Shown here: positions 37,426 to 57,792 of the stretch, piece by piece | Numbering within the stretch: the first letter of the stretch is position 1 | Layout of the letters: the number at the start of each line of letters is the position of its first letter | Source of the DNA: Escherichia coli | GTDB lineage: Bacteria; Pseudomonadota; Gammaproteobacteria; Enterobacterales; Enterobacteriaceae | NCBI RefSeq assembly: GCF_003019035.1 | Contig: NZ_CP027447.1 | DNA length: 64,000 nucleotides | Direction: 5' to 3' (one strand) | The notes under the pieces: model-generated | Seen by the model: the letters and a program-made list of their open reading frames with translations, nothing else | What the model was told of the DNA's origin: nothing | The model's database searches: none | Program-made: the position numbers and the translations under genes

Positions 37426-37601
37426 GCTGTATTCCTTATTTGGACCATACAGAGGGAAAAACCGGTACAGATGAGGCTAAAAAACCGGATGCAGATGCTG
37501 TTTTAACCTGTCTGTATGTTAAATAAAAGTAATGTTTGAATCTGTATTGTGAACTGCCAAAAGGCGGATGATGAAGCCTCTGAAAGATGAGGAGGCAGCA
37601 G

Positions 37602-37766: not shown

Positions 37767-37807
37767 TGGGGCAATTTCCCTTCCCGTATGGGGAAGGGGA
37801 GAGAAAC

Positions 37808-38146: not shown

Positions 38147-38216
38147 GATTACTATTCCTTAGAAATAGGGATTGTGATTAGCGGTGCGGGTGTGTTGGCG
38201 CACATCCGCACCGCGC
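38140..38216 (+). ncRNA. symR: Putative SymR antisense sRNA (antitoxin RNA for symE)
   Basis: Assigned by position only: in K-12 SymR is transcribed antisense across the symE start and 5' UTR. A TAGAAT -10-like hexamer lies just upstream inside symE on the + strand, and a 9-bp-stem hairpin (GCGGTGCGG ... CCGCACCGC) occupies the predicted 3' part. Ends are approximate. Confidence 0.4.
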
Positions 38217-38223
38217 TAAATAC

Positions 38224-38239
38224 CTGGATATATCATCAG
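38224..38239. promoter_or_regulatory. Candidate LexA box (SOS box) in the symE promoter region
   Basis: CTGGATATATCATCAG fits CTG-N10-CAG with an A/T-rich spacer, about 80 nt upstream of the symE start; consistent with the known SOS control of symE. Confidence 0.5.
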
Positions 38240-38360
38240 TAAATATGGGGAAAGTCCAGCTAAAAATAGAAAATAATAAAAGCGTTACTGGAAAGATCTG
38301 GAAGAGAAATTAACGTTAATTCAGAATGGCCGGATAACAAAGTGTATCCGGCCTTCATAA

Positions 38361-41624: not shown

Positions 41625-41690
41625 ATCGCGCTCCAACCCTGGCTAATTTCTGGTAAGCATTCCCGTATCAGTAGAAAACCTTACCAGAAA

Positions 41691-41710
41691 GCCCCTGATT
41701 TTACAGGGGC
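41691..41710 (-). terminator. Hairpin immediately downstream of hsdS (possible attenuator/terminator before hsdR)
   Basis: 7-bp perfect stem GCCCCTG/CAGGGGC with a 6-nt loop, about 8 nt after the hsdS stop, followed by T-rich sequence on the minus strand; an adjacent 10-bp inverted repeat (TTCTGGTAAG ... CTTACCAGAA) lies in the hsdR leader. Confidence 0.35.
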
Positions 41711-41718
41711 AAAATGCG

Positions 41719-43113: not shown

Positions 43114-44722
43114 AACCCAGCACCTCCAGATTCTGGCGAATCGCACGATCCAGTTCTTCCGCCTGCTTCATCTGCTCAAACAACGTCTTCGACAATTCGC
43201 GCATTTTCGTCTCAAATGCCACGCCGTCCTCTTCCTGCTCGGCTGCACCTACATAGCGGCCCGGTGTCAGAACGTAGTCGTTATCTTTAATGTCTTGCAG
43301 GGTCGCAACTTTGCAGAAGCCAGCCTGGTCTTCATATTTTTCCAGCTTGCTGTCACCACGCGCAATCCGTGCAGCCAGTTCTTCCGGCGTACTGCGCCAG
43401 GCATGGTAGGTATCGGCGATGGTGGCAATATCTTCCGTTGTTAACTCTTTAGTTGTGCGGCTAATCATGGTGCCGAGGTTACGCGCATCAATAAACAGCG
43501 TCTCGCCCTGACGATCACGATAACCTTTGGCCGGATCGGCAGCCTTCGATTTGGTCATAAACCATAAACACACCGGGATCTGCGTGGTGTAAAACAACTG
43601 ACCTGGCAGAGCGATCATGCAGTCAATCAGATCATTTTCGATCATCTGTGCACGGATCTCGCCTTCACCGCTGGTGTTAGAACTCATCGAACCGTTTGCC
43701 AGCACAAAACCTGCTGTGCCGTTAGCCGACAGCTTGGAGAGCATATGCAAAATCCAGCCGTAGTTGGCGTTACCGGTTGGCGGCATACGATACCCAGCAA
43801 AACGTGGGTCTTTGGTTAATTCGGCTTCATTACGCCAGTCTTTCAGGTTGAACGGCGGGTTCGCCAGAATGTAGTCGGCTTTCAGGTCCGGGTGCTGGTC
43901 GCTAAAGAAAGTGTTTGCCGGTCGTTCGCCGAGGTTAGCTGAAAGACCGCGAATGGCGAGGTTCATTTTTGCCAGTTTATACGTCGTGGCAGTCAGTTCC
44001 TGACCATACAGCGCGATATCACGGCTTTTACCCTGATGGCTCTCGACAAACTTCACCGACTGCACGAACATCCCCGCCGAACCGCAGCACGGGTCATAAA
44101 TTTTGCCCTGAAAGGGTTCGAGCATTTCAGTTAACAGCGTAACCACACATTTAGGCGTGTAGAACTCACCACCGCCTTTGCCTTCAGTTGCGGCAAACTT
44201 ACCGAGGAAGTATTCGTAAACGCGTCCGACCAGGTCTTCTTTCGATAACGTTTCAACGTCAGTTTCGTGTGCCAGCGTTTCGATGTTGTCGATGGTATCA
44301 ATCAGTGACGCCAGTTTTTTGGTTTCCAGATTCTGACGGCTGAAGTAGTTGTCTGGCAGCGCGCCTTTCAGGGTTGGGTTACGTTTCTCAATGGTCGAGA
44401 GGGCGGTGTCAATACGAACCGCAATATCGTCCTGTTTGGCATTTTGTTTGATAAACGACCAGCGCGCCTCTTCCGGCAGGTAGAAAATGTTGTCCTGCTG
44501 GTAGAACACTTCCATCTCAAGGAAGTCAGCTTGCCCATCGGCAATCATTTTTTTGCGGCGTGCTTCAAACTTATCGCTGATGAATTTCAGGAACACGAGG
44601 CTCAACACCACGTGCTTGTATTCGGAGGACTCAACGCTACCGCGAAGCTGGTTTGCTGTATCCCATAATGTTTCTTCAAAGCCTTTCTTTGCTTTGGCTT
44701 TTTTAGTTGGTGCTTTGGCCAT
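43103..44722 (-). CDS. hsdM: Type I restriction-modification N6-adenine DNA methyltransferase subunit (HsdM)
   Basis: 539 aa; AdoMet-binding region (YDPCCGSAGMF) and catalytic NPPF motif (LANPPFN); the N-terminus (MAKAPTKKAKAKKGFEETLW...) differs from K-12 EcoKI HsdM. Confidence 0.9.
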   Translation of the reverse strand: MAKAPTKKAKAKKGFEETLWDTANQLRGSVESSEYKHVVLSLVFLKFISDKFEARRKKMIADGQADFLEMEVFYQQDNIFYLPEEARWSFIKQNAKQDDIAVRIDTALSTIEKRNPTLKGALPDNYFSRQNLETKKLASLIDTIDNIETLAHETDVETLSKEDLVGRVYEYFLGKFAATEGKGGGEFYTPKCVVTLLTEMLEPFQGKIYDPCCGSAGMFVQSVKFVESHQGKSRDIALYGQELTATTYKLAKMNLAIRGLSANLGERPANTFFSDQHPDLKADYILANPPFNLKDWRNEAELTKDPRFAGYRMPPTGNANYGWILHMLSKLSANGTAGFVLANGSMSSNTSGEGEIRAQMIENDLIDCMIALPGQLFYTTQIPVCLWFMTKSKAADPAKGYRDRQGETLFIDARNLGTMISRTTKELTTEDIATIADTYHAWRSTPEELAARIARGDSKLEKYEDQAGFCKVATLQDIKDNDYVLTPGRYVGAAEQEEDGVAFETKMRELSKTLFEQMKQAEELDRAIRQNLEVLGYGE

Positions 44723-44785
44723 GATGAACTCTGTTCAGATAAATTGGGTCGCTATTGTAATGGTAGAGACGGCAGATTTCGCCCT

Positions 44786-45952
44786 TTAATCCATCTCCAG
44801 CTCATCAAACAACTGCAAATCTACATCCAGCAATTCCACTGCATTGCTGCGGCGAATGCCGACGTTATTTTCGATTAACAGTTCCAGTAAGCGATCGCCG
44901 TCGATAAGCGTAATGGGCGCGGCCCCCGGAAAGAGCGCCGCTTCTGCACATTTCGCTGCAAATTTCCCGGTGGTGATGAGCGTACCGCGAATGGCCTTGT
45001 GGTAAGGCAACGCTCCGCGCAACTGGTCGATATACGGTCGAGTGATGGTGTTCTGCATTCTTTTGACCTGCACCACTTCGGTAATAGTGGTGATGCCGAC
45101 CTGCACCTGACCAATCACGTCCACACCTTTATCGCCTGAGGCTTTGGTCACTTCGACCTGCTCGTAGCCCATTGCTTCCAGTAATTGACCGACCAGTTGT
45201 TCAAATTTGTACGGGTTCATCGTGCTGATTTGTTCGCGCAGCAGCTCTTTTTGCTGTTCGTTATAGCGTTTTACCGCTTCCAACAGCTCTTTACGCGGAT
45301 CGCTTTTTCGTGCAGGCAACGCTTTTCCAAGCCAGGCGCGCCCGGTATCGGTGATGCGATAGCTCATGCCTTCACGGTTAACCATGTCACGGTCGATAAG
45401 GTTATAGAGACGGGAGTAGAGCGTGCTTTTCACTGAACTTGCTGACGCGAATTTCGAATGCTGATGCAAAAAGGCCTGCCATTCCGGCAATAAATCGGCG
45501 CGGCGCGACATTTCCCGGCCAGCCAGCAGCTCAAGCAGTTGCAGAATGCCTTCCTGGTCGTCCAGTGAACGCAGCGTTTTTTCGTCATCTTGCAGGAATT
45601 TTTGCCCGCGCGAGGTGGGCTGCCAGGTATCGTCTGGCGTGCTTTCCATCAGCTCAAACTGGGGATAGTTGAGGAATAAGTAGCAGCCGTAGCTGTGGCG
45701 CGGGTTCAATATGTGATTATCGGTATCCCAAATACGACGGGCGATGTCGGCATCTTCACCCGTTAAGCGTTCGCTGATCCACAGGTCAGGTTCCGACCAG
45801 TCAACGGGTTTTTGCGGCGTTCCGGTTTGCTCGTGAATGGCAGTAATCATATTGCGCACCGCTTTCAGGGAATAGCCTGAGACGGCTTTCATCATAGCCT
45901 TAACTTGCGCATAGGTAGGAAAAAGCGGGGTAATGACTTTGTAGTTTTTCAC
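44786..45952 (-). CDS. Mrr-like restriction endonuclease family protein (extended N-terminal region + Mrr-type PD-(D/E)xK catalytic domain)
   Basis: 388 aa; C-terminal third carries Mrr-catalytic-like blocks (GDKGVDVIG ... VQVKR ... GTLITTGKF ... LIDGD); N-terminal ~240 aa have no K-12 Mrr counterpart. GTG start preceded by AGGGA; 63 bp upstream of hsdM on the same strand. Confidence 0.65.
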   Translation of the reverse strand: MKNYKVITPLFPTYAQVKAMMKAVSGYSLKAVRNMITAIHEQTGTPQKPVDWSEPDLWISERLTGEDADIARRIWDTDNHILNPRHSYGCYLFLNYPQFELMESTPDDTWQPTSRGQKFLQDDEKTLRSLDDQEGILQLLELLAGREMSRRADLLPEWQAFLHQHSKFASASSVKSTLYSRLYNLIDRDMVNREGMSYRITDTGRAWLGKALPARKSDPRKELLEAVKRYNEQQKELLREQISTMNPYKFEQLVGQLLEAMGYEQVEVTKASGDKGVDVIGQVQVGITTITEVVQVKRMQNTITRPYIDQLRGALPYHKAIRGTLITTGKFAAKCAEAALFPGAAPITLIDGDRLLELLIENNVGIRRSNAVELLDVDLQLFDELEMD

Positions 45953-46105
45953 GGTAATCCCTTAACGACAGCGAGGTGTTTAGTGTGCCATGTCAGGCGA
46001 GAAATTCTATTGGATGAATCAAGTCCAACTCACACATTGTCAATTTCATGGTTGATTATTCGAAACGTGATGCTATTTCCAACATCAACGCTATAATTGC
46101 AGAAT

Positions 46106-46135
46106 AATTGTACATACATTTTTGTATATACAATT
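46106..46135. promoter_or_regulatory. Near-perfect 13-bp-arm palindrome (candidate operator / -10 region) upstream of the brnT remnant
   Basis: AATTGTACATACA-TTTT-TGTATATACAATT, with one mismatch between arms and an internal perfect palindrome TTGTATATACAA, ending about 14 nt before the brnT ATG; typical of an autoregulated TA promoter. Confidence 0.45.
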
Positions 46136-46148
46136 AGGGATGGCAACT

Positions 46149-46277
46149 ATGCCAATGGAGTTTGAATGGGATGCAAATAAGGCCAAAGGTAATCGGGTGA
46201 AACATGGCATCCGCTTTGAAGATGCGGTGTTAGTGTTTGATGATCCACAACGAACGGAATCGCTATGAGCATGGTTA
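46149..46277 (+). pseudogene. Truncated BrnT-like (DUF497) ribonuclease toxin remnant
   Basis: Translation MPMEFEWDANKAKGNRVKHGIRFEDAVLVFDDPQRTECYEHG* has the conserved DUF497 N-terminus (FEWD..K...N..KHG..FE.A..VF.DP) but stops after 42 codons, against about 90 aa for intact BrnT toxins. Confidence 0.5.
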
Positions 46278-46567
46278 AACATAAACGAGGGACCTCCTCT
46301 ACACTCGATGTGCAGCATGAGGCCGAACTGAAGGCGCTGGCGAATAAATCCGACGAAGATATTGATTACAGTGATATCCCACCTTCCAGCGATGAGCAAT
46401 GGTCTAACGCAGAACGCGGTAAGTTTTATCGGCCATTGAAAACTCAGGCCTCGGTGCGTATTGATTCTGATGTGATGGAATGGTTGAAGCGACCAGGTAA
46501 AGGCTATCAAACTCGCCTGAACGCAATTTTACGTGAAGCGATGCTGCGCGATCAGAACAAAAAATAA
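46265..46567 (+). CDS. BrnA-like antitoxin (CopG/RHH-related, COG3514-type), apparently intact
   Basis: 100 aa; C-terminal GKFYRPLKTQASVRIDSDVMEWLKRPGKGYQTRLNAILREAMLRDQ matches the conserved BrnA antitoxin signature (GYQTRINAILR); overlaps the 3' end of the toxin remnant. Confidence 0.6.
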   Translation: MSMVKHKRGTSSTLDVQHEAELKALANKSDEDIDYSDIPPSSDEQWSNAERGKFYRPLKTQASVRIDSDVMEWLKRPGKGYQTRLNAILREAMLRDQNKK

Positions 46568-46589
46568 TTCAGGCCGCCACATGGCGGCC
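46559..46589 (-). terminator. Putative rho-independent terminator of yjiA
   Basis: Perfect 7-bp stem GGCCGCC/GGCGGCC, followed on the minus strand by TGAATTATTTTTT, just downstream of the yjiA stop. Confidence 0.5.
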
Positions 46590-46600
46590 ATCATCCAAAA

Positions 46601-47557
46601 TTACTTCCTCAACCCCGCAAACGCCGCCCGAATCTCATCCTCCGGCAGCTGAATCCCGATAAACACCATCGTGCTATGCGGTTTTTCATCGCCCCATGGC
46701 CTGTCCCAGTCGGCGCTGTAGAGGCGCTGGACACCCTGGAACAGCAGGCGATTAGGTTCGCCGTCAATCCATAGCATCCCTTTGTAACGCAGTAGTTTAT
46801 CCGCCGACTCCAGCAGCAGGTTTTCCATCACGCGGGAAACTTCGCTGATATCTACCGGGTAATCCAGTTCCACCACAATCGACGAAATATCGTTTTGTTT
46901 GTCCGCGATAAAGTGGAAACGCGGTTTGGTGCTGACGACGTTCTCTTCCAGCATAAAACCGTTGGTGTTGAACAGCAGGCCCAGGTCGATGTCGCCGTGG
47001 GTGACGGTGTAGATCGGTGCACGGGCGTTGATGCGCGCCAGGCGTTCACGCAGTTTTTCTGCTTCGCCTGCGACGTCGGTTTTAGTCAGCAGAATACGGT
47101 CGGCGTAGCCAACCTGTGACTGGGCGATGGTGAACTGGTTCATCTGCTCATCGGCATGTACCGCATCCACCAGCGCAATCACGCCGTCCAGCAGGTAACG
47201 CTGGCATAAAATCTCATGGGAGAAAAAGGTCTGAATAATCGGGCCGGGATCGGCCATGCCGGTGCATTCAATCACCAGACGGTCGAACTGAATATTGCCC
47301 TTGTCGAGATTATCCAGCAGGTCGAGTAGGGCGTCTTCCAGCTCGTTGGAGCGCGAACAGCAGATGCAGCCGTTGGTCAGCGTTTTGATCTGCGTGACGC
47401 GATCGCCAATCAGTTGATCATCAACGGAGACTTCGCCGAATTCGTTTTCAATCACGGCAATCTTGTAGCCGTGTTGTTCGTTAAGAATATGGCGCAGCAG
47501 GGTGGTTTTGCCGGCGCCTAAAAAACCGGTGAGTAGGGTAACTGCAATCGGGTTCAT
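46601..47557 (-). CDS. yjiA: CobW/P47K-family GTPase YjiA (zinc-associated G3E GTPase)
   Basis: Matches K-12 YjiA from MNPIAVTLLTGFLGAGKTTLLRHILNEQHGYKIAVIENEFGEVSVDD...; GCICC metal-binding motif; the track ORF has a 28-codon extension that is not used. Confidence 0.9.
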   Translation of the reverse strand: MNPIAVTLLTGFLGAGKTTLLRHILNEQHGYKIAVIENEFGEVSVDDQLIGDRVTQIKTLTNGCICCSRSNELEDALLDLLDNLDKGNIQFDRLVIECTGMADPGPIIQTFFSHEILCQRYLLDGVIALVDAVHADEQMNQFTIAQSQVGYADRILLTKTDVAGEAEKLRERLARINARAPIYTVTHGDIDLGLLFNTNGFMLEENVVSTKPRFHFIADKQNDISSIVVELDYPVDISEVSRVMENLLLESADKLLRYKGMLWIDGEPNRLLFQGVQRLYSADWDRPWGDEKPHSTMVFIGIQLPEDEIRAAFAGLRK

Positions 47558-47567
47558 GCTCTCTCCA

Positions 47568-47771
47568 TTAACAACAGCGCATACCGCCTTTACCATCGCC
47601 GCCGTAGCGCGCGTTCTGGCGTTCGCGGAAGAATTCTTCATAGCTCATGTACGGCTTGTCGGGATGGTTGGTCTTCATATGCTCGACGTAGTTGTCGTAG
47701 TCTGGAATGCCAATCAACATCTTCGCCGCCTGGCCGAGATATTTTTTTGCCTGTCCTAAGTTACCAAACAT
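47568..47771 (-). CDS. yjiX: DUF466 small protein YjiX (BtsT-associated)
   Basis: 67 aa ([67 protein letters not shown]); lies 10 nt upstream of yjiA and downstream of btsT, as in K-12. Confidence 0.85.
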
Positions 47772-47820
47772 AGTTCACTCTGATAAGAACAAAGCCCCGC
47801 CGAAGCGGGGCTAAACACGG

Positions 47821-49971
47821 TTAGTGGTGCGAAGAGATCTTCACGCCGCCTTCCGGGATTGGAACGTACGGTGTTTCTTTGTCAGTACGTTTGTCGCTGT
47901 TACGCACCTTCAGCCAGGTTTTGAAACCGTAGAAGATGATGCTGTACACCACAATCAGGAACAGAATACTCAGACCTGCGTTGGTGTAGTTGTTCACAAC
48001 GATGTGGTTCATGTTGGCAATCTGCTGCGCCGTCAGGTCAGTACCGTTAGCAATCTTCTCTTTGTACTGGCTTGCCATGTAGAAGAAGCCTTCCATCTGC
48101 GGGTTGGTGCTGAACAGTTTCAGGCCCAGCGCCCAGGTGGTGCAGATAAGCAGCCATACAGCCGGAACAACAGTTACCCAGATGTATTGGGTGCGCTTCA
48201 TCTTAATCAGCACAACGGTGCCCAGTACCAGCGCTACGGCTGCCAGCATCTGGTTGGAGATACCGAACAGCGGCCACAGGCTCTTAACGCCGCCCAGCGG
48301 ATCGACCACGCCCTGATACAGCAGGTAGCCCCACAGACCCACACAGCCCGCAGTACCGATGATACCGGCAACCAGAGAGTCGGTTTTTTTCAGGAACGGG
48401 ATGAAGTTACCCAGCAGGTCCTGCAGCATAAAGCGGCCAGAACGGGTACCCGCATCCAGCGCGGTCAGGATGAACAGGGCTTCGAACAGAATACCGAAGT
48501 GATACCAGAAGCCCATGTCAGCCATCGGCAGCACTTTGTGGAACACATGAGCGATACCTACCGCCAGCGTCGGCGCACCACCTGCACGGTTCAGGACAGA
48601 AGGCTCACCAATGTCTTTCGCGGTTTGCAGGATCTGCTCTGGCGAAATCACGAAGCCCCAGGAGCTGACGGTCGCTGCCGCGTGTGCGGTAACGTCTTTC
48701 AGCTGCGCCATGATGATCGGCGCGTTCTCGCCACCCATTTCATGCAGGTTAGGCATGGTGATGCCGAGGCCAGCAGGCGGGGTGTTCATCGCGAAGTAAA
48801 GACCCGGTTCGATGATGGACGCAGCAACCAGCGCCATAATCGCCACGAAGGACTCCATCAGCATTGCGCCGTAGCCAATGAAACGCGCGTCGGTTTCGTT
48901 AGCCAGCAGTTTCGGTGTCGTGCCGGAAGAGATCAGCGCGTGGAAGCCAGATACCGCACCACAGGCGATGGTGATGAACAGGAACGGGAACAGAGCGCCT
49001 TTCCACAGCGGGCCAGTACCGTCAATGTACTGGGTCATCGCAGGCATTTTCAGTTCCGGGTTCAGCACCACGATACCCAGCGCCAGGCCGACGATAACGC
49101 CGATTTTCAGGAAGGTTGCCAGATAGTCGCGCGGTGCGAGGATCAGCCACACTGGCAGCAGTGCGGAAACAAACGCATAGCCAATCAGTGCGAAGGTAAT
49201 GGTGGTGTCTTTAAAGGTCAGTGCCGGACCCCAGTACGGATCGTGAGCAATCACGCCACCGAAGTAGATAGAGGCAACCAGCAGCACGATACCAATGACA
49301 GAGACTTCACCTACACGCCCCGGACGAATAAAGCGCATGTAGATACCCATAAACAGCGCAATCGGTACGGTTGAGCAAACGGTGAAGACACCCCACGGAC
49401 TTTCGGCCAGGGCTTTAACCACAATCAGCGCCAGGACGGCAAGGATGATGATCATGATTAAGAAACAGCCAAACAGCGCGATAGTCCCCGGTACTGGTCC
49501 CATCTCTTCTTTGATCATCTCACCGAGAGATGCGCCGTTACGGCGAGAGGAGATAAACAGCACCATAAAGTCCTGTACCGCACCGGCCAGCACTACCCCC
49601 GCCAGCAGCCACAGCGTGCCAGGCAGGTAGCCCATCTGCGCGGCGAGAACCGGACCAACCAGCGGACCAGCACCGGCGATAGCGGCGAAGTGGTGACCAA
49701 ACAACACGTAACGGTTGGTCGGAACATAGTTCAGACCGTCGTTGTTAATAACCGCAGGCGTCGCGCGCGTGGGGTCGAGTTTCATCACCTTCTGGGCGAT
49801 GTACAGACTGTAGTAGCGATAAGCCACCAGATACACCGACACAGAGGCGACCACGATCCACAGGGCACTGACGTGCTCCCCCCGACGTAATGCAACTACC
49901 GCGAGGCAGAATGCACCGATGATTCCGAGAATCACCCAGGGTATGTGCTTGAATATCTTTTTAGTATCCAT
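47821..49971 (-). CDS. btsT: CstA-family pyruvate/H+ symporter BtsT (YjiY)
   Basis: Matches K-12 BtsT from MDTKKIFKHIPWVILGIIGAF...; start set at that Met (716 aa); large polytopic membrane protein. Confidence 0.9.
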   Translation of the reverse strand: MDTKKIFKHIPWVILGIIGAFCLAVVALRRGEHVSALWIVVASVSVYLVAYRYYSLYIAQKVMKLDPTRATPAVINNDGLNYVPTNRYVLFGHHFAAIAGAGPLVGPVLAAQMGYLPGTLWLLAGVVLAGAVQDFMVLFISSRRNGASLGEMIKEEMGPVPGTIALFGCFLIMIIILAVLALIVVKALAESPWGVFTVCSTVPIALFMGIYMRFIRPGRVGEVSVIGIVLLVASIYFGGVIAHDPYWGPALTFKDTTITFALIGYAFVSALLPVWLILAPRDYLATFLKIGVIVGLALGIVVLNPELKMPAMTQYIDGTGPLWKGALFPFLFITIACGAVSGFHALISSGTTPKLLANETDARFIGYGAMLMESFVAIMALVAASIIEPGLYFAMNTPPAGLGITMPNLHEMGGENAPIIMAQLKDVTAHAAATVSSWGFVISPEQILQTAKDIGEPSVLNRAGGAPTLAVGIAHVFHKVLPMADMGFWYHFGILFEALFILTALDAGTRSGRFMLQDLLGNFIPFLKKTDSLVAGIIGTAGCVGLWGYLLYQGVVDPLGGVKSLWPLFGISNQMLAAVALVLGTVVLIKMKRTQYIWVTVVPAVWLLICTTWALGLKLFSTNPQMEGFFYMASQYKEKIANGTDLTAQQIANMNHIVVNNYTNAGLSILFLIVVYSIIFYGFKTWLKVRNSDKRTDKETPYVPIPEGGVKISSHH

Positions 49972-50238
49972 AGTAAAACCTGGCATGTATTGATTAATAG
50001 TTGGCCGAAGCCGTTCTAGGTTTGCGTTGCGTTTGAGGAGGTAAATTGACCGCTATCCTGCAGTGATGTTGCCAGAGTTACGCGCGCGTAAAGTAAGGTA
50101 AATAACTGAGTGGTTATTTTAGGGATGTAAGCGGTCAGGAATGGCGGTGAGCGGTTGGGCAAGAATTATTCGTCGGGTGGATATGTGATTGAGATCACAA
50201 TAAAAATGCCCCTTCGATAATTAACCGAAGGGGCGTTC

Positions 50239-51459
50239 TTAGAAGAGAGTGTCTAATTCTGCCAGTACGTTGTAGTCGTCATCAGTCAATAACAACGTTT
50301 TCCATTTGTCGAAGGTCAGGCACGGATGCGATGTGCCAAACACCAGAATATCCCCCACTTGCACGTCGCTATTAGCTGACAGTTGCAACATGCAGTGCTG
50401 ATCCATAATACCTGTACTGCGAATCGCCTGTGGATCAAATGCCAGTGATTTGCCGTTGCGGTAGTGGGCGACTGGTTGCGGCAGTCCGGCGTCGAAGGCG
50501 CAATCACGCTTACCAAAATTTACCACCGCACGATCAGCTTCCGGCACCGATTGCACCATGGCGACCAGTTCCAGCGCAGATGTGAGATCGCCTGCCAGAT
50601 CGCAGGCCACAGGATCACGGGCAAGCAACTGTTGTTGTGCCGCGTCGTAGATCCCGGTGTCGTGAGTGATGTAGCAGCCAGGGCGAATAACAATGCGGCA
50701 GTTATCAGGCTTTTCTGCCGCCAGCCAGATATTGCACACCACGTCATACCAGACCGTGCCTGCTCCGGTGAGAATAAACTCGCCATCAACCAGACTTGCT
50801 ATATCACAGGCCAGTTGTGCGGCATCCCGCAGCAGAGCTTCTACCTGCGGTTGTGGATCGTCACCGTGTAAAACGCCTTCATATAACTCAAGCCCCCGCA
50901 GGCGTAACCCCGGTAATTGGGCTGCCTGTTTAGCCAGTGTCAGTGCGGCATCCCTTGAGCGGCAACCACAGCGCCCGCCGGGGACACCCAACTCAATCAT
51001 CACGTTCAGTGTCTGTTGCTGACTGGCAAAAAAGGCAGACAAAGCGCGGGCGTTCTCAATGCTGTCGATACAGCAGATAAAATCGACCGTCGGGTAATGT
51101 CGTTGCAACTGGGCAATCAACTGCATATTCGCCTTGCCGACCAGCTGGTTAACCATCAGCACTCGCTGAATACCGCTCGCCATTGCCGCACCAGCCTGCC
51201 ATGCGCTACCGACACCTATTGCCCAGGCACCAGCCGCCTGCTGCGCCTGAAAAATCCACGGCGTCATGGTGGTTTTACCGTGCGGTGCCAGTGAAACGCC
51301 GCGCGCGTCAGCGTAGCGTTGCATCCACGTAATGTTGTTCTCCAGGGCCTGCTTTTTAATGATCGCGGCAGGTAAACAGACATCTTCGGCAAGGAGATTT
51401 GCGGGCATTTGCATCAGGGCAGATTTATGGGGAACCAGAGGTTCTGAGTGGTATTTCAT
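50239..51459 (-). CDS. PLP-dependent D-serine-dehydratase-like / D-threonine-aldolase-family enzyme (alanine-racemase N-terminal fold)
   Basis: 406 aa; PLP-lysine context LAPHGKTT near the N-terminus and a C-terminal beta-domain, typical of the DSD1-like family; divergent from the D-aminoacylase gene. Confidence 0.65.
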   Translation of the reverse strand: MKYHSEPLVPHKSALMQMPANLLAEDVCLPAAIIKKQALENNITWMQRYADARGVSLAPHGKTTMTPWIFQAQQAAGAWAIGVGSAWQAGAAMASGIQRVLMVNQLVGKANMQLIAQLQRHYPTVDFICCIDSIENARALSAFFASQQQTLNVMIELGVPGGRCGCRSRDAALTLAKQAAQLPGLRLRGLELYEGVLHGDDPQPQVEALLRDAAQLACDIASLVDGEFILTGAGTVWYDVVCNIWLAAEKPDNCRIVIRPGCYITHDTGIYDAAQQQLLARDPVACDLAGDLTSALELVAMVQSVPEADRAVVNFGKRDCAFDAGLPQPVAHYRNGKSLAFDPQAIRSTGIMDQHCMLQLSANSDVQVGDILVFGTSHPCLTFDKWKTLLLTDDDYNVLAELDTLF

Positions 51460-51659
51460 AACATTTACCTTTTAAGTTTTTCACCGTATCGGATGTGAGT
51501 ATCATTTGTAACTAAATGAAATATAAATATTTAGTTTATTTATCTTATTATTTATGAATAAAAGTATCATAAAATCATCTGGGTTTTGCGTAGTTTTCCA
51601 CTGTTTTTCGTCCTTGTAAATGGTTAACTTGTCACCATTGCAGAAATGGAGTGACGAAC

Positions 51660-53102
51660 ATGCAGGTTGACTGGTTAATCAAAAATGTGACCGTTATCGA
51701 CGGTAGCGGCGGCCCTGAATTTCGCGGTGACGTGGCAATAACAGGTGATCGGATTGTCGATATTGCCCCTGCGCTTAACGTTACGGCGCAGCAGGTCATT
51801 GACGGGGAAGGGCGGGTGCTGGCACCAGGGTTTATCGACGTTCATACCCATGACGATATCAACGTTATTCGCATCCCGGAATATCTGCCAAAGATCAGCC
51901 AGGGGATCACTACGGTGATTGTCGGTAACTGCGGGATTAGTGCGGCGTCGGCGAAAATGAAAGGTGAAGTTCCTGACCCGATGAATCTGTTGGGGGAAGC
52001 AGAGCACTTTATTTATCCTACCGTTGAAAGCTATGCCCAGGCAGTGGAAGCAGCCAGGCCGTCACTGAACGTTGGCACGCTGATTGGTCATACGGCGCTG
52101 CGTAATAACCATATGGACGACCTGTTTCGCCCGGCGACGGTGGATGAAATTGCCGCTATGCGTGCCGACTTACGTCTGGCGTTGAGTCAGGGGGCGCTGG
52201 GGTTAAGTTCCGGGCTGGCCTATGCAACGGCATTTCAGGCGACTACCGAAGAAGTCATGGCGCTGGCGGAAGAATTAGCCGGTGAGAAGGGCGTTTATAC
52301 CACCCATCTGCGTTCTGAATTTGAACCGATTCTCGATGCCCTGGATGAGGCGTTTCGTATTGGGCGTCATGGCAAAGTGCCTGTCGTGGTTTCCCACCAT
52401 AAATGCGCCGGGGCGAAAAACTGGGGGCGGACAAAAGAAACGTTGGCCTTTTTTGACCAAATGCGTCAACACCAGGAAATTGGCTGCGATGTCTACCCTT
52501 ACTCGGCCAGTTCTTCAACGCTGGATCTCAAACAAGTCACCGACGAATTCGATATTGTGATCACCTGGTCACAAACACATCCGCAGCAGGCCGGGAAAAC
52601 ACTGGCACAAATCGCCATCGACTGGCAGATGAGTATGCTGGAGGCCGCGAAGTTGCTGATGCCTGCCGGGGCTATCTATTACAACATGGACGAGCGCGAC
52701 GTCCGCAGAGTGTTGAGTTATCCGGTCAGTATGATTGGCTCTGACGGACTGCCCAATGATCCCATGCCGCATCCGCGTTTATGGGGCGCTTTCCCTCGCG
52801 TGCTGGGTCACTATTGCCGTGATGAAGGCTTATTCCCACTGACCACGGCTATCCACAAAATGACCGGGCTTTCTGCCAGCCGTTTTCGTCTGCCTCAGCG
52901 TGGGCTGGTGAAAGTCGGCTATTTTGCGGACCTGGTGTTGTTCGATCCACAAACCATTCGTGATGTTGCCAGCTTTTCTGATCCCAAACGCCCGGCAGAT
53001 GGCATTGAGGCGGTGATGGTGAACGGCGTTATGAGCTATGGTCGCGATAAACACATTACAGGCCGTGCGGGACGCTTCCTGCGCCGCCAGACCTCACATT
53101 AA
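51660..53102 (+). CDS. N-acyl-D-amino-acid deacylase (D-aminoacylase, amidohydrolase superfamily)
   Basis: Colinear with characterised D-aminoacylases: PGFIDVHTHDD, ISQGITTVIVGNCGIS, VVSHHKCAGAKNWGRTKETL, MIGSDGLPNDPMPHPRLWGAFPRVLGHY, GYFADLVLFDP. Start set at the ATG at 51660 (GGAG upstream); the track ORF begins at a GTG three codons earlier. Confidence 0.78.
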   Translation: MQVDWLIKNVTVIDGSGGPEFRGDVAITGDRIVDIAPALNVTAQQVIDGEGRVLAPGFIDVHTHDDINVIRIPEYLPKISQGITTVIVGNCGISAASAKMKGEVPDPMNLLGEAEHFIYPTVESYAQAVEAARPSLNVGTLIGHTALRNNHMDDLFRPATVDEIAAMRADLRLALSQGALGLSSGLAYATAFQATTEEVMALAEELAGEKGVYTTHLRSEFEPILDALDEAFRIGRHGKVPVVVSHHKCAGAKNWGRTKETLAFFDQMRQHQEIGCDVYPYSASSSTLDLKQVTDEFDIVITWSQTHPQQAGKTLAQIAIDWQMSMLEAAKLLMPAGAIYYNMDERDVRRVLSYPVSMIGSDGLPNDPMPHPRLWGAFPRVLGHYCRDEGLFPLTTAIHKMTGLSASRFRLPQRGLVKVGYFADLVLFDPQTIRDVASFSDPKRPADGIEAVMVNGVMSYGRDKHITGRAGRFLRRQTSH

Positions 53103-53111
53103 GGAGTGAAT

Positions 53112-53501
53112 ATGAGTATTAAACGTTACGGTACGGAAGGTGGAACAGGCACTGGCGGGCAGCATTTGCCGTTTGCCAGGGCGGTTGAGGCGGGCGGCTG
53201 GCTGTACGTCTCCGGGCAAACCCCCATGAAAAACGGTGAAGTGGTAGAAGGCGGTATCGTTGAACAGTCACGACTGGCGATCCAAAACTGTGTCGACATC
53301 ATGACTGAAGCCGGTTATAGCCTGGCGGATGTGGTTCACGTGAAAGTGATCCTGACCGACGCCCGCTATTTCCAGTCATTTAATAAAGTATTCAGAGAAT
53401 TTTTTGGCGAGAATCCGCCTGCACGTATTTGTTGTGTAGCTGATCTGGTTGTCGATTGTAAAGTTGAAGTCGATGTGACCTGTTATAACGCGACCCGCTA
53501 A
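53112..53501 (+). CDS. RidA/YjgF-family reactive-intermediate deaminase
   Basis: About 129 aa with typical RidA features (AGGWLYVSGQ, C-terminal VEVD); start at the ATG preceded by AAGGAG; begins 10 nt after the deacylase stop. Confidence 0.72.
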   Translation: MSIKRYGTEGGTGTGGQHLPFARAVEAGGWLYVSGQTPMKNGEVVEGGIVEQSRLAIQNCVDIMTEAGYSLADVVHVKVILTDARYFQSFNKVFREFFGENPPARICCVADLVVDCKVEVDVTCYNATR

Positions 53502-53603
53502 TAAATTTAAGAATTAAAAAAATAGACCGCAATTGAGTGCTGAATACATTCAGCACTCCGGGAACTCTTACTTTATTCTCTCTCTACTGGCAGGATGTGA
53601 ATT

Positions 53604-55073
53604 ATGAACAGTCATATCTTTTTAGTCGGCTTTATTATTTATGCCATCGCCATGATTTGGCTTGGTTGGTTTGTGTCTCGTAATCAGAAAAGCGGAGAAG
53701 ATTTTCTGCTGGGCGGGCGTTCGTTGCCGCTGTTTCTGACGCTGGGCTCAACCGTTGCCACGATGGTTGGCACGGGTTCCAGTATGGGCGCCGTGGGCTT
53801 TGGCTACAGCAATGGCTGGGCCGGAATGCTTTATGGCGTCGGTGGGGCCGTAGGTATATTACTGGTGGCGTGGCTGTTTGCACCGGTACGTAAATTACGT
53901 TTTATGACCATGAGTGAAGAAATATCTTATTATACTGGCGGGAGTCATTTAATTAAAAATATTGTCGGCCTGATGATATTTATTGCCTCTATTGGCTGGC
54001 TGGGGGCGCATATATTAGGTGGCAGTATGTATCTTGCCTGGGCAACAGGTATTGATCTTACTGTAGCAAAATTAATTATCGCCTTAGCTTTTGCGATTTA
54101 CGTTATTATCGGCGGTTATTCGGCGGTAGTGTGGACAGACACCATTCAGGCCTTAATTCTGTTCTTTGGCTTTATATTGATGGCTATTCTCGCCGTTGTT
54201 CACGTTGGCGGCTGGAGTGCGATTGAACAGGCGATGGACCCAAAAGCGATGAGCCTGTTTGCGATTGATAAAATGGGCGTTCTACCTGCGCTTTCGCTGG
54301 CGCTGGTTATTGGTGTCGGCGTACTGGCCACACCGTCTTATCGCCAGCGTATTTACTCGGGTAAAGATGTTCCCTCTGTACGCCGTTCGTTTGTTATTAC
54401 TGGGGTGTTATATCTGTTCTTCTCGATTTTGCCTGCCATTATCGGCATGGCGGCGTTCACCATGAACCCAAATCTGGAAAACAGCAACTACGCCTTCTTG
54501 TTCGCGACCAGTTTCTTACCTGCCATTCTTGGGCTGGTGGTGCTGATTGCCGGGCTTTCAGCCACCATGTCTTCTGCCAGCTCCGATGCCATCGCGGCGG
54601 TGGCGATTATGATGCGCGACGTCTACACCATGATTACCGGCAGAATGCCGCCGGAGGACAAGGCCATTACTTACTCACGCTGGATGTTGACCTTTGTTAT
54701 TGGCCTGGCGCTGGTCTTTGCTCTGACCTCTAATGACATCATCAGCTACATTACCAAAATGATTTCGATGCTGATGTCCGGGCTGTTTATCTGCTCGATT
54801 CTCGGTCGCTTCTGGCTACGCTTTAACTGGCAGGGCGCGCTGGCGGCGTTAGTGAGCGGTATGGTGATGTCAATTGTGGTGCTGATGAATGCCGACTGGC
54901 TGGCTTACTGGGGTAACCCGTGTATTCCGTCAGTGCTGGGCAGCCTGGTCGCTGGCGTACTGGTGACGTTGGTAACGCCAGCAAGTCAGGTCAGCCGGGA
55001 AGAAGCTTTGGCTATTATCACCAATGAGCGTGAAAACCAGAGTGTCGTGATCACCAAACCTGAAGAAGCATAA
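53604..55073 (+). CDS. Sodium:solute symporter (SSS) family transporter
   Basis: 489-aa polytopic membrane protein with an SSS-like N-terminal region (GGRSLPLFLTLGSTVATMVGTGSSMG); co-oriented with the deacylase and RidA genes. Confidence 0.72.
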   Translation: MNSHIFLVGFIIYAIAMIWLGWFVSRNQKSGEDFLLGGRSLPLFLTLGSTVATMVGTGSSMGAVGFGYSNGWAGMLYGVGGAVGILLVAWLFAPVRKLRFMTMSEEISYYTGGSHLIKNIVGLMIFIASIGWLGAHILGGSMYLAWATGIDLTVAKLIIALAFAIYVIIGGYSAVVWTDTIQALILFFGFILMAILAVVHVGGWSAIEQAMDPKAMSLFAIDKMGVLPALSLALVIGVGVLATPSYRQRIYSGKDVPSVRRSFVITGVLYLFFSILPAIIGMAAFTMNPNLENSNYAFLFATSFLPAILGLVVLIAGLSATMSSASSDAIAAVAIMMRDVYTMITGRMPPEDKAITYSRWMLTFVIGLALVFALTSNDIISYITKMISMLMSGLFICSILGRFWLRFNWQGALAALVSGMVMSIVVLMNADWLAYWGNPCIPSVLGSLVAGVLVTLVTPASQVSREEALAIITNERENQSVVITKPEEA

Positions 55074-55082
55074 CCGACAATG

Positions 55083-55988
55083 CTAATCGCCAAGTGGCTG
55101 GCGGTTAGCGCCCCCACGGTGGCTGTCTAACACGAGTTTTATCCGCCGCAGGCGATCTTTCGCCTGCGCTTTATTTGCCATTGCCAGTTCTGTTGCCAGT
55201 ACATCGACCATGGCTAACATCGCGTAGCGGGAAGGGGTGGGCTTAAAGATGTAATCACTTTCCTGAACCAGTAACGGCAATACCAGATCCACCTGTTCCG
55301 CCAGCGGTGTTTGTGCTGGCGTAATGGCAATAACACGCGCGCCATACTGACGGGCGATTGCCGCACTTTCGATGATTTCCGGTGTATAACCGCCCAGCGA
55401 AAGCACAATCACCACATCCTGCGGCATGACTGCCGAGCACATCATTCTCATCATCAGGGCATCATTCTGACTGACCACCGGTAGCCCCAGACGGAATAAA
55501 CGGTACTGAATCTCCTGTGAACAGATAGTGGAACCGCCGCCAGTTCCTAACGCAAGAATTTGCCGCGCCTGACTTAACCAGCTTACAGCCTGGCTGATGG
55601 CATTCATATCCAGCGAACGACGATGCGTCTCCAGCACGCTAATAATCGCTTCGTAGATCCCCTGAACACCGTCAAGATCCGGTACATCGAGAATAAACCG
55701 CTGCCCGACAGCCAGTGACTGCGCCAGTTTGACTTTCAACTCGCGGACATCTTTGCACCCCAGTGCACGGGCAAAACGCGTCACCGACGCCTGACTGGTT
55801 TGCGTTAACCGTGCCAGCTCAGCAATTGGCAACTCTACTGCGGCAGAGACGTCATCAAGAATAAATTGTGCGATACGCTTTTCAGTGGCTGTTAACGCCA
55901 TAAACCGTTCGGTAATGCAGGAGATGATATCGATGCTATAAGCCATAGGAGTATCACTGGTTCGAAGAAGATTGATACTTTGTACCAT
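55083..55988 (-). CDS. RpiR/MurR-family transcriptional regulator (HTH + SIS domain)
   Basis: N-terminal RpiR HTH (TATEKRIAQFILDD...ELARLTQTSQASVTRFARALG) followed by a sugar-isomerase (SIS) domain. Start uncertain: it could be Met1 or Met15 of the track ORF. Confidence 0.72.
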   Translation of the reverse strand: MVQSINLLRTSDTPMAYSIDIISCITERFMALTATEKRIAQFILDDVSAAVELPIAELARLTQTSQASVTRFARALGCKDVRELKVKLAQSLAVGQRFILDVPDLDGVQGIYEAIISVLETHRRSLDMNAISQAVSWLSQARQILALGTGGGSTICSQEIQYRLFRLGLPVVSQNDALMMRMMCSAVMPQDVVIVLSLGGYTPEIIESAAIARQYGARVIAITPAQTPLAEQVDLVLPLLVQESDYIFKPTPSRYAMLAMVDVLATELAMANKAQAKDRLRRIKLVLDSHRGGANRQPLGD

Positions 55989-56127
55989 AAACTGCCGCTA
56001 TAGAGTGTGACCCTCACAAAAAACGCAAGTTTGCTGCAACAAAAGCAGTGCCGACGCTTTTCCACAGCATAAAGTTTTCCACCACCAGGCCGACAACCAG
56101 TGTATCTGTCTAGTGGAAAGAGAAACC

Positions 56128-57792
56128 ATGTTAAAACGTATCAAGATCGTGACCAGCTTACTGCTGGTTTTGGCCGTTTTTGGCCTTTTACAACTGACAT
56201 CAGGCGGTCTGTTCTTTAATGCCTTAAAGAATGACAAAGAAAATTTCACTGTTTTACAAACCATTCGCCAGCAGCAATCCACGCTGAATGGCAGCTGGGT
56301 CGCGTTGTTGCAGACGCGTAACACCCTCAACCGCGCGGGTATCCGCTACATGATGGATCAGAATAATATTGGTAGCGGTTCAACCGTTGCTGAGCTGATG
56401 CAGAGTGCCAGTATTTCGCTGAAACAGGCGGAAAAAAACTGGGCGGATTACGAAGTGTTGCCGCGTGACCCGCGTCAGAGCACCGCCGCAGCGGCAGAGA
56501 TCAAACGTAATTACGATATTTATCACAATGCGCTGGCGGAGCTGATCCAACTGTTAGGTGCAGGCAAAATCAACGAGTTCTTTGATCAGCCGACCCAGGG
56601 ATATCAGGACGGTTTCGAGAAGCAGTATGTGGCTTACATGGAGCAAAACGATCGGCTCTATGATATCGCCGTCAGCGATAATAATGCCTCCTACAGCCAG
56701 GCGATGTGGATTCTGGTGGGCGTGATGATCGTCGTACTGGCGGTCATCTTCGCCGTCTGGTTCGGTATTAAAGCCTCGTTGGTAGCGCCAATGAATCGCC
56801 TGATTGACAGCATTCGTCATATTGCAGGCGGCGATCTGGTGAAACCGATTGAGGTGGATGGCTCTAATGAGATGGGGCAACTGGCTGAGAGTTTGCGCCA
56901 TATGCAGGGAGAGCTGATGCGTACCGTCGGTGATGTGCGCAACGGGGCCAATGCCATCTATAGCGGTGCCAGCGAAATCGCTACCGGCAATAACGATCTC
57001 TCTTCGCGCACCGAGCAACAGGCCGCTTCGCTGGAAGAGACGGCAGCCAGCATGGAGCAACTGACCGCAACGGTGAAGCAGAACGCCGAAAATGCGCGCC
57101 AGGCCAGCCACCTGGCGTTAAGTGCTTCTGAAACGGCGCAACGCGGCGGCAAAGTGGTAGATAACGTGGTGCAGACTATGCGCGATATCTCCACCAGTTC
57201 GCAGAAAATCGCCGATATTATCAGCGTAATTGACGGCATTGCCTTCCAGACCAATATTCTCGCTTTGAACGCGGCGGTTGAAGCAGCGCGCGCGGGTGAG
57301 CAAGGGCGCGGTTTTGCGGTGGTCGCGGGTGAAGTGCGTAATCTGGCCCAGCGCAGCGCTCAGGCGGCTCGTGAAATTAAAAGCCTGATTGAAGACTCGG
57401 TGGGCAAAGTGGATGTTGGCTCTACGCTGGTCGAAAGCGCCGGGGAAACCATGGCAGAGATTGTCAGCGCTGTGACCCGCGTGACGGACATTATGGGCGA
57501 AATTGCTTCGGCTTCTGATGAGCAGAGCCGTGGTATCGATCAGGTTGGCTTAGCAGTAGCTGAGATGGACAGAGTAACCCAACAGAACGCTGCGCTGGTG
57601 GAAGAATCTGCCGCCGCTGCCGCCGCGCTGGAAGAGCAGGCCAGTCGCCTGACCGAAGCTGTGGCAGTGTTCCGGATTCAGCAACAGCAGCAACATCAGC
57701 GTGAAACATCGGCTGTGGTAAAAACCGTGACGCCAGCTGCGCCGCGTAAAATGGCCGTGGCAGATAGCGGGGAGAACTGGGAAACGTTTTAA
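56128..57792 (+). CDS. tsr: Methyl-accepting chemotaxis protein I (serine chemoreceptor)
   Basis: Matches E. coli Tsr from [27 protein letters not shown]... through the C-terminal NWETF pentapeptide; the track ORF has a 5-codon extension that is not used. Confidence 0.92.

Follow-up and report, generated by a model that had tools for sequence, protein, structure and literature searches.

Five genes between btsT and tsr form a predicted amino-sugar acid catabolic module

We analyzed a 64,000-nucleotide stretch of Escherichia coli DNA (contig NZ_CP027447.1 of RefSeq assembly GCF_003019035.1; here referred to as the window) in which five genes occupy the interval between btsT and tsr. Sequence comparisons indicate that this module very probably represents the ong family of gene clusters in E. 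coli, which would allow its carriers to catabolize an N-acetyl-2-amino-2-deoxy-D-hexonic acid for carbon and nitrogen. The module comprises an ongC-like gene for a 406-residue fold-type III enzyme dependent on pyridoxal 5'-phosphate (PLP) (positions 50239-51459, minus strand), three plus-strand genes, and an ongR-like gene for a MurR/RpiR-family regulator with HTH_6 and SIS domains (55083-55946, minus strand). The plus-strand genes are ongB-like, encoding a predicted N-acetyl-hexosaminate deacetylase with the D-aminoacylase fold (51660-53102), ongD-like, encoding a RidA-family enamine/imine deaminase (53112-53501), and ongIT-like, encoding a sodium:solute symporter (SSS; 53604-55073). A first-pass annotation, made from the sequence alone, had listed five genes in these orientations and had noted that btsT and tsr adjoin in K-12; the open reading frame (ORF) list, in which all five frames are uninterrupted, and alignment to K-12 bear this out, and NCBIfam and Pfam scans agree with its five family assignments.

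The ong cluster was described in Pseudoalteromonas prydzensis ACAM 620 as a system for oxidative chitin utilization (Jiang et al. 2022, PMC9537276). Its substrate, N-acetyl-D-glucosaminic acid (GlcNAc1A), is the C1-oxidized sugar freed when lytic polysaccharide monooxygenases (LPMOs) attack chitin, and its genes encode a TonB-dependent receptor, OngC, OngR (MurR/RpiR), OngB, OngD (RidA), OngIT (SSS), KdgK, and OngA (GH20), each essential for growth on GlcNAc1A in Pseudoalteromonas (PMC9537276). OngB, annotated as a "D-aminoacylase," gives glucosaminate and acetate, and OngC, annotated as a "D-amino acid deaminase," gives 2-keto-3-deoxy-gluconate (KDG) and ammonia (PMC9537276). The first-pass annotation had named a match to a known, named operon of defined substrate as an outcome that would undo its interpretation. 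At the family level the module is one, an ong-type cluster with GlcNAc1A as the characterized substrate (PMC9537276). It departs from the P. prydzensis cluster in its reduction to five core genes, in its probably ancestral rather than inserted state, in its distinct OngB subtype (Asn at position 348, below), and in its occurrence in a gut bacterium with none of that cluster's own genes for the uptake or cleavage of oxidized chitin fragments. The order of reactions that had been read from the gene content, a deacylase followed by a PLP eliminase and quenching of the imine by RidA, is that of the ong pathway.

Four lines of evidence place the module in the ong family: five full-length homologues, conserved active-site residues, synteny with related loci, and purifying selection. 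The E. coli module has in common with the P. prydzensis cluster the five core gene types, at 44-84% full-length identity, the catalytic and specificity residues of OngB (19 of 20, below), and, by prediction, the reaction sequence. As the blastp reference we used the cluster of Pseudoalteromonas sp. ZZD1, whose OngB is 92% identical to that of P. prydzensis (PpOngB); the window deacylase is 54.0% identical to the ZZD1 protein. NCBIfam scans of the five proteins reached no curated equivalog cutoff. The RefSeq names of these accessory genes in E. coli are generic, and an oxidized amino-sugar route now gives them a concrete, testable proposed function in a nutrient class not normally considered for this species.

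The deacylase keeps nearly all of the OngB active site

A search of the PDB with the window deacylase returned 9G5M/9GV8 (KleDacyl of Klebsiella pneumoniae, deposited as "Amidohydrolase family protein") at 938 bits and 9KB1/9KB3 ("PpOngB" / "carbohydrate de-N-acetylated protein") at 560 bits, with the Alcaligenes D-aminoacylase AfDam (1M7J) below PpOngB at 458 bits. PpOngB is the GlcNAc1A deacetylase of the P. prydzensis cluster (PMC9537276), and a structural study has defined OngB metal ligands, catalytic residues, and the positions that discriminate OngB from D-aminoacylases (PMC12017989). The window protein aligns with PpOngB without gaps over 472 residues (53.8% identity) and has the same residue at 19 of the 20 positions published as catalytic or specificity determining. 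Its C94, H219, and H249 match the subtype V metal site (Cys97/His222/His252), and its H65, H67, and D365 match the HxH pair (His68/His70) and catalytic Asp368. The first-pass annotation had named missing metal-binding residues and pseudogenization as outcomes that would undo its interpretation; residue alignment and the ratio of nonsynonymous to synonymous substitution (dN/dS), which is 0.02-0.04 for the deacylase within E. coli, found neither.

All six residues that mark GlcNAc1A deacetylases (Ser292, Gln298, Ala193, Ala256, Glu226, and Ser290) are identical in the window protein and invariant in 19 homologues from six clades. Aminoacylases have Thr at OngB position 292 and Leu or Arg at 298 (PMC12017989). 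The hydrophobic D-aminoacylase pocket (Phe191, Met254, Leu298, Met346, and Thr at the OngB 292 position) is absent, its places being taken by Ala190, Ala253, Gln295, Asn345, and Ser289, and the Arg295-bearing side-chain pocket of aminoacylases is likewise absent. Compared with AfDam and the Bordetella N-acyl-D-Glu deacylase (3GIP), the window pocket is polar and small rather than hydrophobic or Arg bearing, and, compared with classical D-aminoacylases, the genomic context is one of sugar-acid catabolism. The sole mismatch to PpOngB is at Gly348, which lines the sugar cavity and corresponds to Asn345 in the window protein (483-residue ORF numbering). A further characterized deacylase, PfOngB, is 57% identical to PpOngB and yet GlcNAc1A specific (PMC12017989); at 54%, the window deacylase lies at the limit of the identities that experiments have covered.

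The remaining enzymes and the symporter complete a predicted pathway

The PLP enzyme contains both the Ala_racemase_N and D-ser_dehydrat Pfam domains and aligns with OngC from end to end at 44.9% identity. In the fold-type III PLP family, dehydratases have a C-terminal His-x-Cys metal motif and aldolases have His-x-Asp. The window enzyme and OngC share the PLP lysine (K62, in PHGKTT) and an H378-P-C380 motif; the best PDB match is 3gwq (360 bits), and the D-threonine aldolases 7dib and 4v15 score just 93-104 bits. By these motifs and scores, the enzyme appears to be of the dehydratase/deaminase type rather than an aldolase, so that, of the two families offered by the first-pass annotation, the D-serine-dehydratase-like one stands and the D-threonine aldolase one falls. 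We predict that it acts as a 2-amino-2-deoxy-hexonate (glucosaminate or galactosaminate) dehydratase/deaminase. Its dN/dS within E. coli is 0.12-0.16. As a separate observation, the PLP enzyme seems closer to 3gwq, with which it shares about half of its residues as judged by eye, than to OngC homologues from the ong-type clusters of Paraburkholderia (40-41%), a difference that suggests that paralogous subfamilies exist within the OngC-type deaminases.

The RidA-family protein is the most conserved of the five, at 84.0% full-length identity to OngD. NCBIfam places it in the Rid family, with 82 bits against TIGR00004, under that model's cutoff of 106 bits, and the Arg of its PAR motif aligns with what we take to be the catalytic Arg105 of E. 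coli RidA in the K-12 reference sequence. The symporter is 57.9% identical over its full length to OngIT, matches the SSS superfamily model TIGR00813, falls under the cutoff of every named equivalog, and has a dN/dS of 0.00-0.02 within E. coli; it is predicted to be the inner-membrane importer of N-acetyl-hexosaminate.

In the pathway that we propose, the sugar acid would cross the outer membrane through general porins and be imported by the OngIT-like Na+/solute symporter. The OngB-like zinc amidohydrolase would then strip the acetyl group, leaving free 2-amino-2-deoxy-hexonate; the OngC-like enzyme would eliminate the C3 hydroxyl to give an enamine/imine, which the OngD-like protein would hydrolyze to 2-keto-3-deoxy-hexonate and ammonia. 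The keto-deoxy acid would pass to core enzymes, KdgK/Eda if it is KDG or DgoK/DgoA if it is 2-keto-3-deoxy-galactonate (KDGal), both routes ending in pyruvate and glyceraldehyde-3-phosphate. Both kdgK/eda and dgoK/dgoA belong to the E. coli core genome, so the cell could handle either product. The predicted recipients, dgoRKADT (D-galactonate, De Ley-Doudoroff) and kdgK/eda (KDG, Entner-Doudoroff), lie outside the module, whereas relatives of the module carry DgoK/DgoA paralogues of their own.

OngB residue 348 tracks the type of linked kinase and aldolase

We surveyed related loci in one genome per species, taking the best 80; the Pseudoalteromonas, Klebsiella, and E. coli loci fell outside these and were added through a homologous-protein search. 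The gene order of the module recurs in at least 12 enterobacterial species at 73-96% protein identity, among them Leclercia, Franconibacter (Enterobacter) pulveris, Cedecea, Rahnella, Buttiauxella, and Shimwellia. In Leclercia, Klebsiella, Cedecea, Rahnella, and Buttiauxella, two extra genes lie between the symporter and the regulator. The first encodes a DGOK-family 2-keto-3-deoxy-galactonokinase (Pfam E = 4e-90), and the second encodes an aldolase that scores above the cutoff for 2-keto-3-deoxy-6-phosphogalactonate (KDPGal) aldolase (302 bits versus 207) and below that for Eda. The presence of a 2-keto-3-deoxy-sugar-acid kinase and aldolase inside the operon of relatives sets the product class as a keto-deoxy-hexonate. 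The pair is missing in E. coli, where the ongIT-like and ongR-like genes are 9 bp apart with no kinase between them, and in F. pulveris and Shimwellia; the 3' end of the symporter gene differs in each of the three. Vibrio has all five genes together, along with a KdgK equivalog and an Eda-type aldolase, in line with the pathway published for ong.

Residue 348 is the only variable one among the 20 active-site positions: every Enterobacterales and Burkholderiaceae sequence has Asn there, those of Pseudoalteromonas and Pseudomonas have Gly, and Vibrio has Cys. Across all loci, the type of linked kinase/aldolase follows this residue without exception. Where it is Asn (Enterobacterales and Paraburkholderia), all 14 loci with a linked kinase/aldolase, from two orders, have DgoK/DgoA; where it is Gly or Cys (Vibrio, P. 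entomophila, Andreprevotia, and Pseudoalteromonas), the linked genes are KdgK with or without Eda. The Paraburkholderia kinase matches DGOK with E = 8e-91, and its KDPGal aldolase scores 290 bits. Among the roughly 480 columns of the OngB alignment, just two are invariant in all Dgo-linked and absent from all Kdg-linked sequences: 348 and the column of Arg269 (480-residue numbering). We considered whether Asn348 is a single inherited clade state and rejected this, since the Asn348 sequences were monophyletic in 0 of 100 bootstraps of a simple neighbor-joining tree of OngB, which is weak evidence; because they do not form one clade, two coincident switches are favored over one inherited state. 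No galactonate dehydratase was identified adjoining the Paraburkholderia kinase and aldolase genes, and none of the ong-type clusters has a linked dehydratase of this type (DgoD), as would be expected if OngC, and not galactonate, were the source of KDGal or KDG.

The co-variation of one cavity residue with kinase/aldolase type offers a hypothesis for how the family switches between C4 epimers. Glu226 of PpOngB binds the C4 hydroxyl of GlcNAc1A (PMC12017989). A glycerol bound in the KleDacyl structure is in contact with Asn342, Glu220, and Lys248 (PMC12149444); Asn342 is the equivalent of OngB 348, and Glu220 corresponds to PpOngB Glu226. OngC-type elimination should leave C4 and C5 unchanged, so a KDGal product would require a galacto-configured substrate. 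The Gly348-to-Asn change, tracking the switch from KdgK/Eda to DgoK/DgoA, is a new result that suggests such a substrate, and the relatives of this subtype appear, by their gene content, to feed the De Ley-Doudoroff rather than the Entner-Doudoroff branch. N-Acetyl-D-galactosaminic acid (GalNAc1A) was not in the substrate set assayed for OngB (PMC12017989). A literature search returned nothing relevant on a GlcNAc1A pathway in E. coli or Klebsiella beyond the ong and KleDacyl work, no galactosaminate catabolism, and nothing relevant on glucosaminate ammonia-lyase.

As to the configuration at C4, we regard as evenly poised the proposition that the substrate is galacto configured or that both epimers are used (GalNAc1A, from the DgoK/DgoA of the closest relatives). 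A gluco configuration only (GlcNAc1A, as in the characterized marine clusters) seems doubtful to us, and some other configuration or substrate seems unlikely. A more specific proposal, which we offer tentatively as a possibility, is that the Asn348 subtype represents a previously undescribed pathway for GalNAc1A (oxidized GalNAc) in Enterobacterales, including E. coli, and in Paraburkholderia. In such a pathway, the OngB variant would deacetylate GalNAc1A, OngC and OngD would turn D-galactosaminate into KDGal, and KDGal would enter the De Ley-Doudoroff route by way of DgoK/DgoA paralogues dedicated to it or, in E. coli, core dgoKA; the source could be GalNAc from mucin or glycans, oxidized in the gut or rhizosphere. 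If this is true, the published crystal structure of the Klebsiella "D-acylase" is the first structure of a GalNAc1A deacetylase.

A related observation concerns about 50 Pseudomonas species of the fluorescens/syringae group, in which an RpiR gene lies immediately upstream of an OngB homologue that has Gly348 and keeps all the sugar-contact residues. No recognizable OngC, OngD, OngIT, kinase, or aldolase gene was found within 10 kb of these loci, and the rest of the Pseudomonas pathway, if any, is different or sited elsewhere.

Alternative functions of the module

The strongest competitor holds that the module does the same job as the marine ong cluster, scavenging monomeric GlcNAc1A left by the LPMO-driven chitin oxidation of other organisms and delivering KDG to KdgK/Eda; the DgoK/DgoA of the relatives would then act on KDG and its 6-phosphate (KDPG) or be irrelevant. 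All PpOngB sugar-contact residues except 348 are identical in the window protein, including the C4-hydroxyl binder Glu226, and the clusters of Klebsiella and Serratia are among those that Jiang et al. took as ong clusters co-occurring with lpmo genes (PMC9537276). The linked genes of the Asn348 loci argue the other way: in 14 of 14 the kinase is of the DGOK family and the KDPGal-type aldolase fails the Eda cutoff. GH20 is confined to Gly348 and Cys348 loci, neither it nor a TonB-dependent receptor occurs in any Asn348 locus, and 348 is itself one of the only two OngB columns that split the cluster types. The KdgR regulon of E. coli is induced by KDG. A KDG-producing module would therefore induce its own downstream enzymes, which would explain the loss of the linked kinase and aldolase and speaks for the GlcNAc1A proposal. 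On balance we consider this proposal rather unlikely as it stands.

A second possibility is that the module salvages ordinary N-acyl-D-amino acids or D-amino-acid peptides, freeing D-Ser, D-Thr, or D-Met for deamination to a 2-oxo acid by the PLP enzyme and RidA. It draws on KleDacyl, a K. pneumoniae enzyme 84% identical to the window deacylase and published as a D-acylase for biocatalysis, in a paper that omits sugar-acid substrates and operon context (PMC12149444). KleDacyl hydrolyzes N-acetyl-D-Met, N-acetyl-D-Phe, and N-acetyl-D,L-Trp with D stereospecificity, with a Km of 19-32 mM and a kcat/Km of 1.5-2.8 min-1 mM-1 (~25-47 M-1 s-1), reaching only ~47 M-1 s-1 on N-acetyl-D-Met (PMC12149444). 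PpOngB, in comparison, has a kcat/Km on GlcNAc1A of 1.6 mM-1 s-1 (1,600 M-1 s-1) (PMC12017989). The KleDacyl locus is orthologous to the window module, with the five genes in the same order and orientation; like the loci above, it has two extra in-operon genes, for a DGOK-family kinase and a KDPGal-type aldolase. Since its D-acylase activity is very weak and its gene sits in an operon ordered like the window module, we interpret that activity as a side activity; the crystallized "D-acylase" is probably a sugar-acid deacetylase in vivo, and ordinary N-acetyl-D-amino acids are unlikely native substrates of the window enzyme. The replaced hydrophobic pocket, a regulator of the sugar-acid or sugar-phosphate type, and the in-operon keto-deoxy-sugar-acid kinase and aldolase of close relatives, which have no role in amino-acid catabolism, all count against such salvage, and we judge it very unlikely. 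The first-pass annotation had proposed an N-acylated D-amino acid or a related compound as the substrate. GlcNAc1A is formally an N-acetyl-D-alpha-amino acid but biologically an oxidized amino sugar; ordinary N-acyl-D-amino acids are disfavored by the OngB-type residues and the weakness of KleDacyl.

That the module is a nonfunctional relic heading for deletion, stranded without kinase/aldolase, outer-membrane uptake, or hexosaminidase genes, would account for the absence from E. coli of the two downstream genes of Leclercia, Klebsiella, Cedecea, Rahnella, and Buttiauxella, for the loss of the module from 96% of E. coli genomes, and for one strain with a frameshifted and truncated remnant, but we find it scarcely credible given the intact ORFs and low dN/dS of the carriers (below), the independent occurrence of the five-gene form in F. 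pulveris and Shimwellia, and the general availability of core kdgK/eda and dgoK/dgoA.

Several points weigh against assignment of the module to ong-type sugar-acid catabolism itself. Enzyme activities, gene essentiality, and repression by OngR have been shown only in Pseudoalteromonas, and four of the five proteins are only moderately similar to their characterized counterparts (44-58% identity). Within the btsT-tsr interval, the E. coli module lacks the TonB-dependent receptor, GH20 OngA, and KdgK of the P. prydzensis cluster. The in vitro hydrolysis of N-acetyl-D-amino acids by KleDacyl sets it apart from PpOngB, which has no activity on these substrates (PMC12017989); 3gwq is labeled a "D-serine deaminase," although its function is not known; and D-Ser and D-Thr are further in vitro substrates for deamination by OngC (PMC9537276), as amino-acid salvage would have it. 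Finally, Asn348 and the DgoK/DgoA of close relatives speak for a substrate beyond plain GlcNAc1A. That these functions carry over to E. coli, that core enzymes take on the product, and that the sites described below act as operators are our inferences.

The E. coli and P. prydzensis systems also differ in layout, with ongC divergent and ongR convergent in the former and an ongCRBD operon in the latter. They differ in OngB residue 348 (Asn versus Gly), in the kinase/aldolase type (DgoK/DgoA in the closest relatives of E. coli rather than KdgK, with or without Eda), and in host, a gut commensal or pathogen as opposed to a chitinolytic marine bacterium. The enterobacterial 2-amino-2-deoxy-gluconate phosphotransferase system (PTS) pathway likewise consumes an oxidized amino sugar and uses PLP-dependent beta-elimination to reach a keto-deoxy sugar acid. 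Its proteins, however, are unrelated: phosphorylation comes first, through a mannose-family PTS under sigma-54 activation, a fold-type I lyase acts on the 6-phosphate, and there is no deacetylase, so the N-acetyl form is not used.

The module is most likely an ancestral segment that most E. coli strains have lost

The module is present in 194 of 5,426 complete E. coli genomes (~3.6%), always on the chromosome and at 98.0-100% identity; 193 of these carriers are full length and one holds a decayed remnant. In the rows inspected (45 of 194), every full-length carrier has all five ORFs annotated as intact, and a plasmid search found no copy of the module. Compared with two alleles 98.2-98.7% identical to it, the window copy shows a dS of 0.04-0.10, a dN/dS of 0.00-0.16, and no stop codons, a pattern that indicates long-term purifying selection on the module within E. 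coli.

We also examined the boundaries and flanks. Between btsT and tsr, there is no integrase, insertion sequence element, tRNA, or border direct repeat. At 51.5%, the GC content of the module lies between that of the window (48.6%) and that of the flanking genes (54-56%). The ongR-tsr-lgoT-lgoR flank is common to Leclercia, and lgoT-lgoR, which the KleDacyl locus adjoins, is common to Klebsiella. Flank proteins are 84-90% identical, similar to the 82-86% of the ong proteins. On the left, the KleDacyl locus has a hydroxyproline-type catabolic cluster, and E. coli strain FMU073332 has a ~16-kb form of the interval with such a cluster ahead of the module, as in Klebsiella. A mobile or horizontally inserted island was considered and rejected, as there are no mobility genes and no plasmid copies and the flank synteny is common to other genera.

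At least five states of the btsT-tsr interval occur in E. coli: ~100 bp in K-12, an unrelated 180-residue hypothetical ORF in SCU-316, ong alone in the window and SMS-3-5, the hydroxyproline-type cluster plus ong in FMU073332, and an ong remnant in HH45, where a frameshifted ongC and a truncated ongB abut tsr. Flank synteny, native GC content, the dN/dS of 0.00-0.16, and the decaying remnant in one strain favor ancestral retention. The most likely history is one of an ancestral enterobacterial segment that K-12 and most other E. coli have deleted, not one of recent insertion. The first-pass annotation, which had called the module inserted, probably had the polarity wrong, and the K-12 arrangement appears to be the derived, deleted end state of a multistate locus. 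The module may explain differences between strains in growth on glucosaminic-acid-type substrates, and it may add fitness where amino sugars become oxidized, such as with chitin-containing diets or in the inflamed gut.

The regulator and the control regions of the module

The regulator is 44.0% identical over its full length to Pseudoalteromonas OngR, an RpiR-family repressor (PMC9537276). Its best NCBIfam match is the HexR subfamily (199 bits, under the cutoff). The effector of HexR is KDPG. With HexR as its closest named relative and KDPG as the effector of HexR, an RpiR/SIS regulator fits the pathway, which would end in a phosphorylated keto-deoxy sugar acid; the first-pass annotation had found a regulator of this type unexpected here, a view that the precedent of OngR overturns. 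By analogy, the OngR-like protein would silence ongC and ongB-ongD-ongIT at their divergent promoters and release them once the cell contains the substrate or a phosphorylated intermediate from further down the pathway.

The divergent region between the ongC-like and ongB-like genes (51460..51659; 200 bp, 29% GC) had been expected to hold the control sites, and it appears to do so. In a footprint alignment of nine enterobacterial genera, three blocks within it are invariant, TGAATAAAAGTATCA at 51555-51569, TTTTGCGTAGTTTTCCACTGTTTTT at 51584-51608, and CTTGTAAATGGTTAAC at 51613-51628, and may represent operator or promoter elements. Motif analysis gave AGTATCA as a candidate operator word, at 51498 and 51563, and analysis of shared k-mers gave a perfect inverted pair, AGTATCA-N16-TGATACT (55950..55979, with copies at 55950 and 55973), immediately upstream of the ongR start, as a candidate autoregulatory operator. 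The 64-kb window has seven AGTATCA sites, four of which fall in the two control regions of the module, and one copy is invariant across Enterobacterales. The word, which was picked post hoc, does not occur in the control regions of Vibrio or Pseudoalteromonas, and the exact ongR-proximal pair is not kept in Leclercia or Klebsiella; these sites are candidates for the OngR operator. A scan for sigma-70 promoters returned no more sites than in shuffled sequence, and no promoter was assigned.

Gene starts, edges of the variable segment, and neighboring sequence

The longest ORFs would place the 5' ends of the ongB-like, ongD-like, and ongR-like genes at 51651, 53106, and 55988. The RefSeq annotation of SCU-301, which has an identical copy of the module, gives starts at 51660, 53112, and 55946, and we favor ATG codons at these positions because that annotation and the lengths of orthologues agree. 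Regulator orthologues are 283-287 residues long, which supports the start at 55946; 55988 is probably the end of the longest ORF and not a real start.

The module is bordered by btsT on the left (47821-49971, minus strand) and tsr on the right (56128-57792, plus strand). In K-12-type genomes, tsr directly follows btsT, with ~100 bp where the window has 5.87 kb, and alignment of filled and empty sites places the variable segment at ~50201-56070. On the left, conservation runs up to a near-perfect CRP-type palindrome upstream of btsT, TGTGATTGAGATCACA (50184-50199), which is kept in the K-12-like (TGTGATTCATATCACA) and SCU-316 alleles and probably serves btsT rather than the module. On the right, conservation restarts at ~56071 with CATAAAGTTTT, which we take to be the flagellar-type promoter of tsr. 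A consensus scan identified a hairpin resembling a terminator, GCCCCTTCGG...CGAAGGGGC and then a run of T (50208..50234, minus strand), just downstream of the ongC-like gene; its stem has 11 pairs, 7 of them GC. An Rfam search found no RNA family at the locus.

Outside the module, which is 100% identical to that of SCU-301, the window is colinear with SCU-301 over 35859-49689 at 99.07% identity. Upstream of ~35859, it is rearranged or divergent relative to SCU-301, with blocks of 81-96% identity in another order; this mismatch means that the window comes from another strain and that the neighborhood is mosaic. Within the colinear part, an intact ORF for a BrnA-family antitoxin (46265-46567, plus strand) adjoins a BrnT toxin (46149-46250) that is truncated according to the SCU-301 RefSeq annotation (a 99%-identical stretch), so that 46149-46567 looks like a toxin-antitoxin pair with a decayed toxin.

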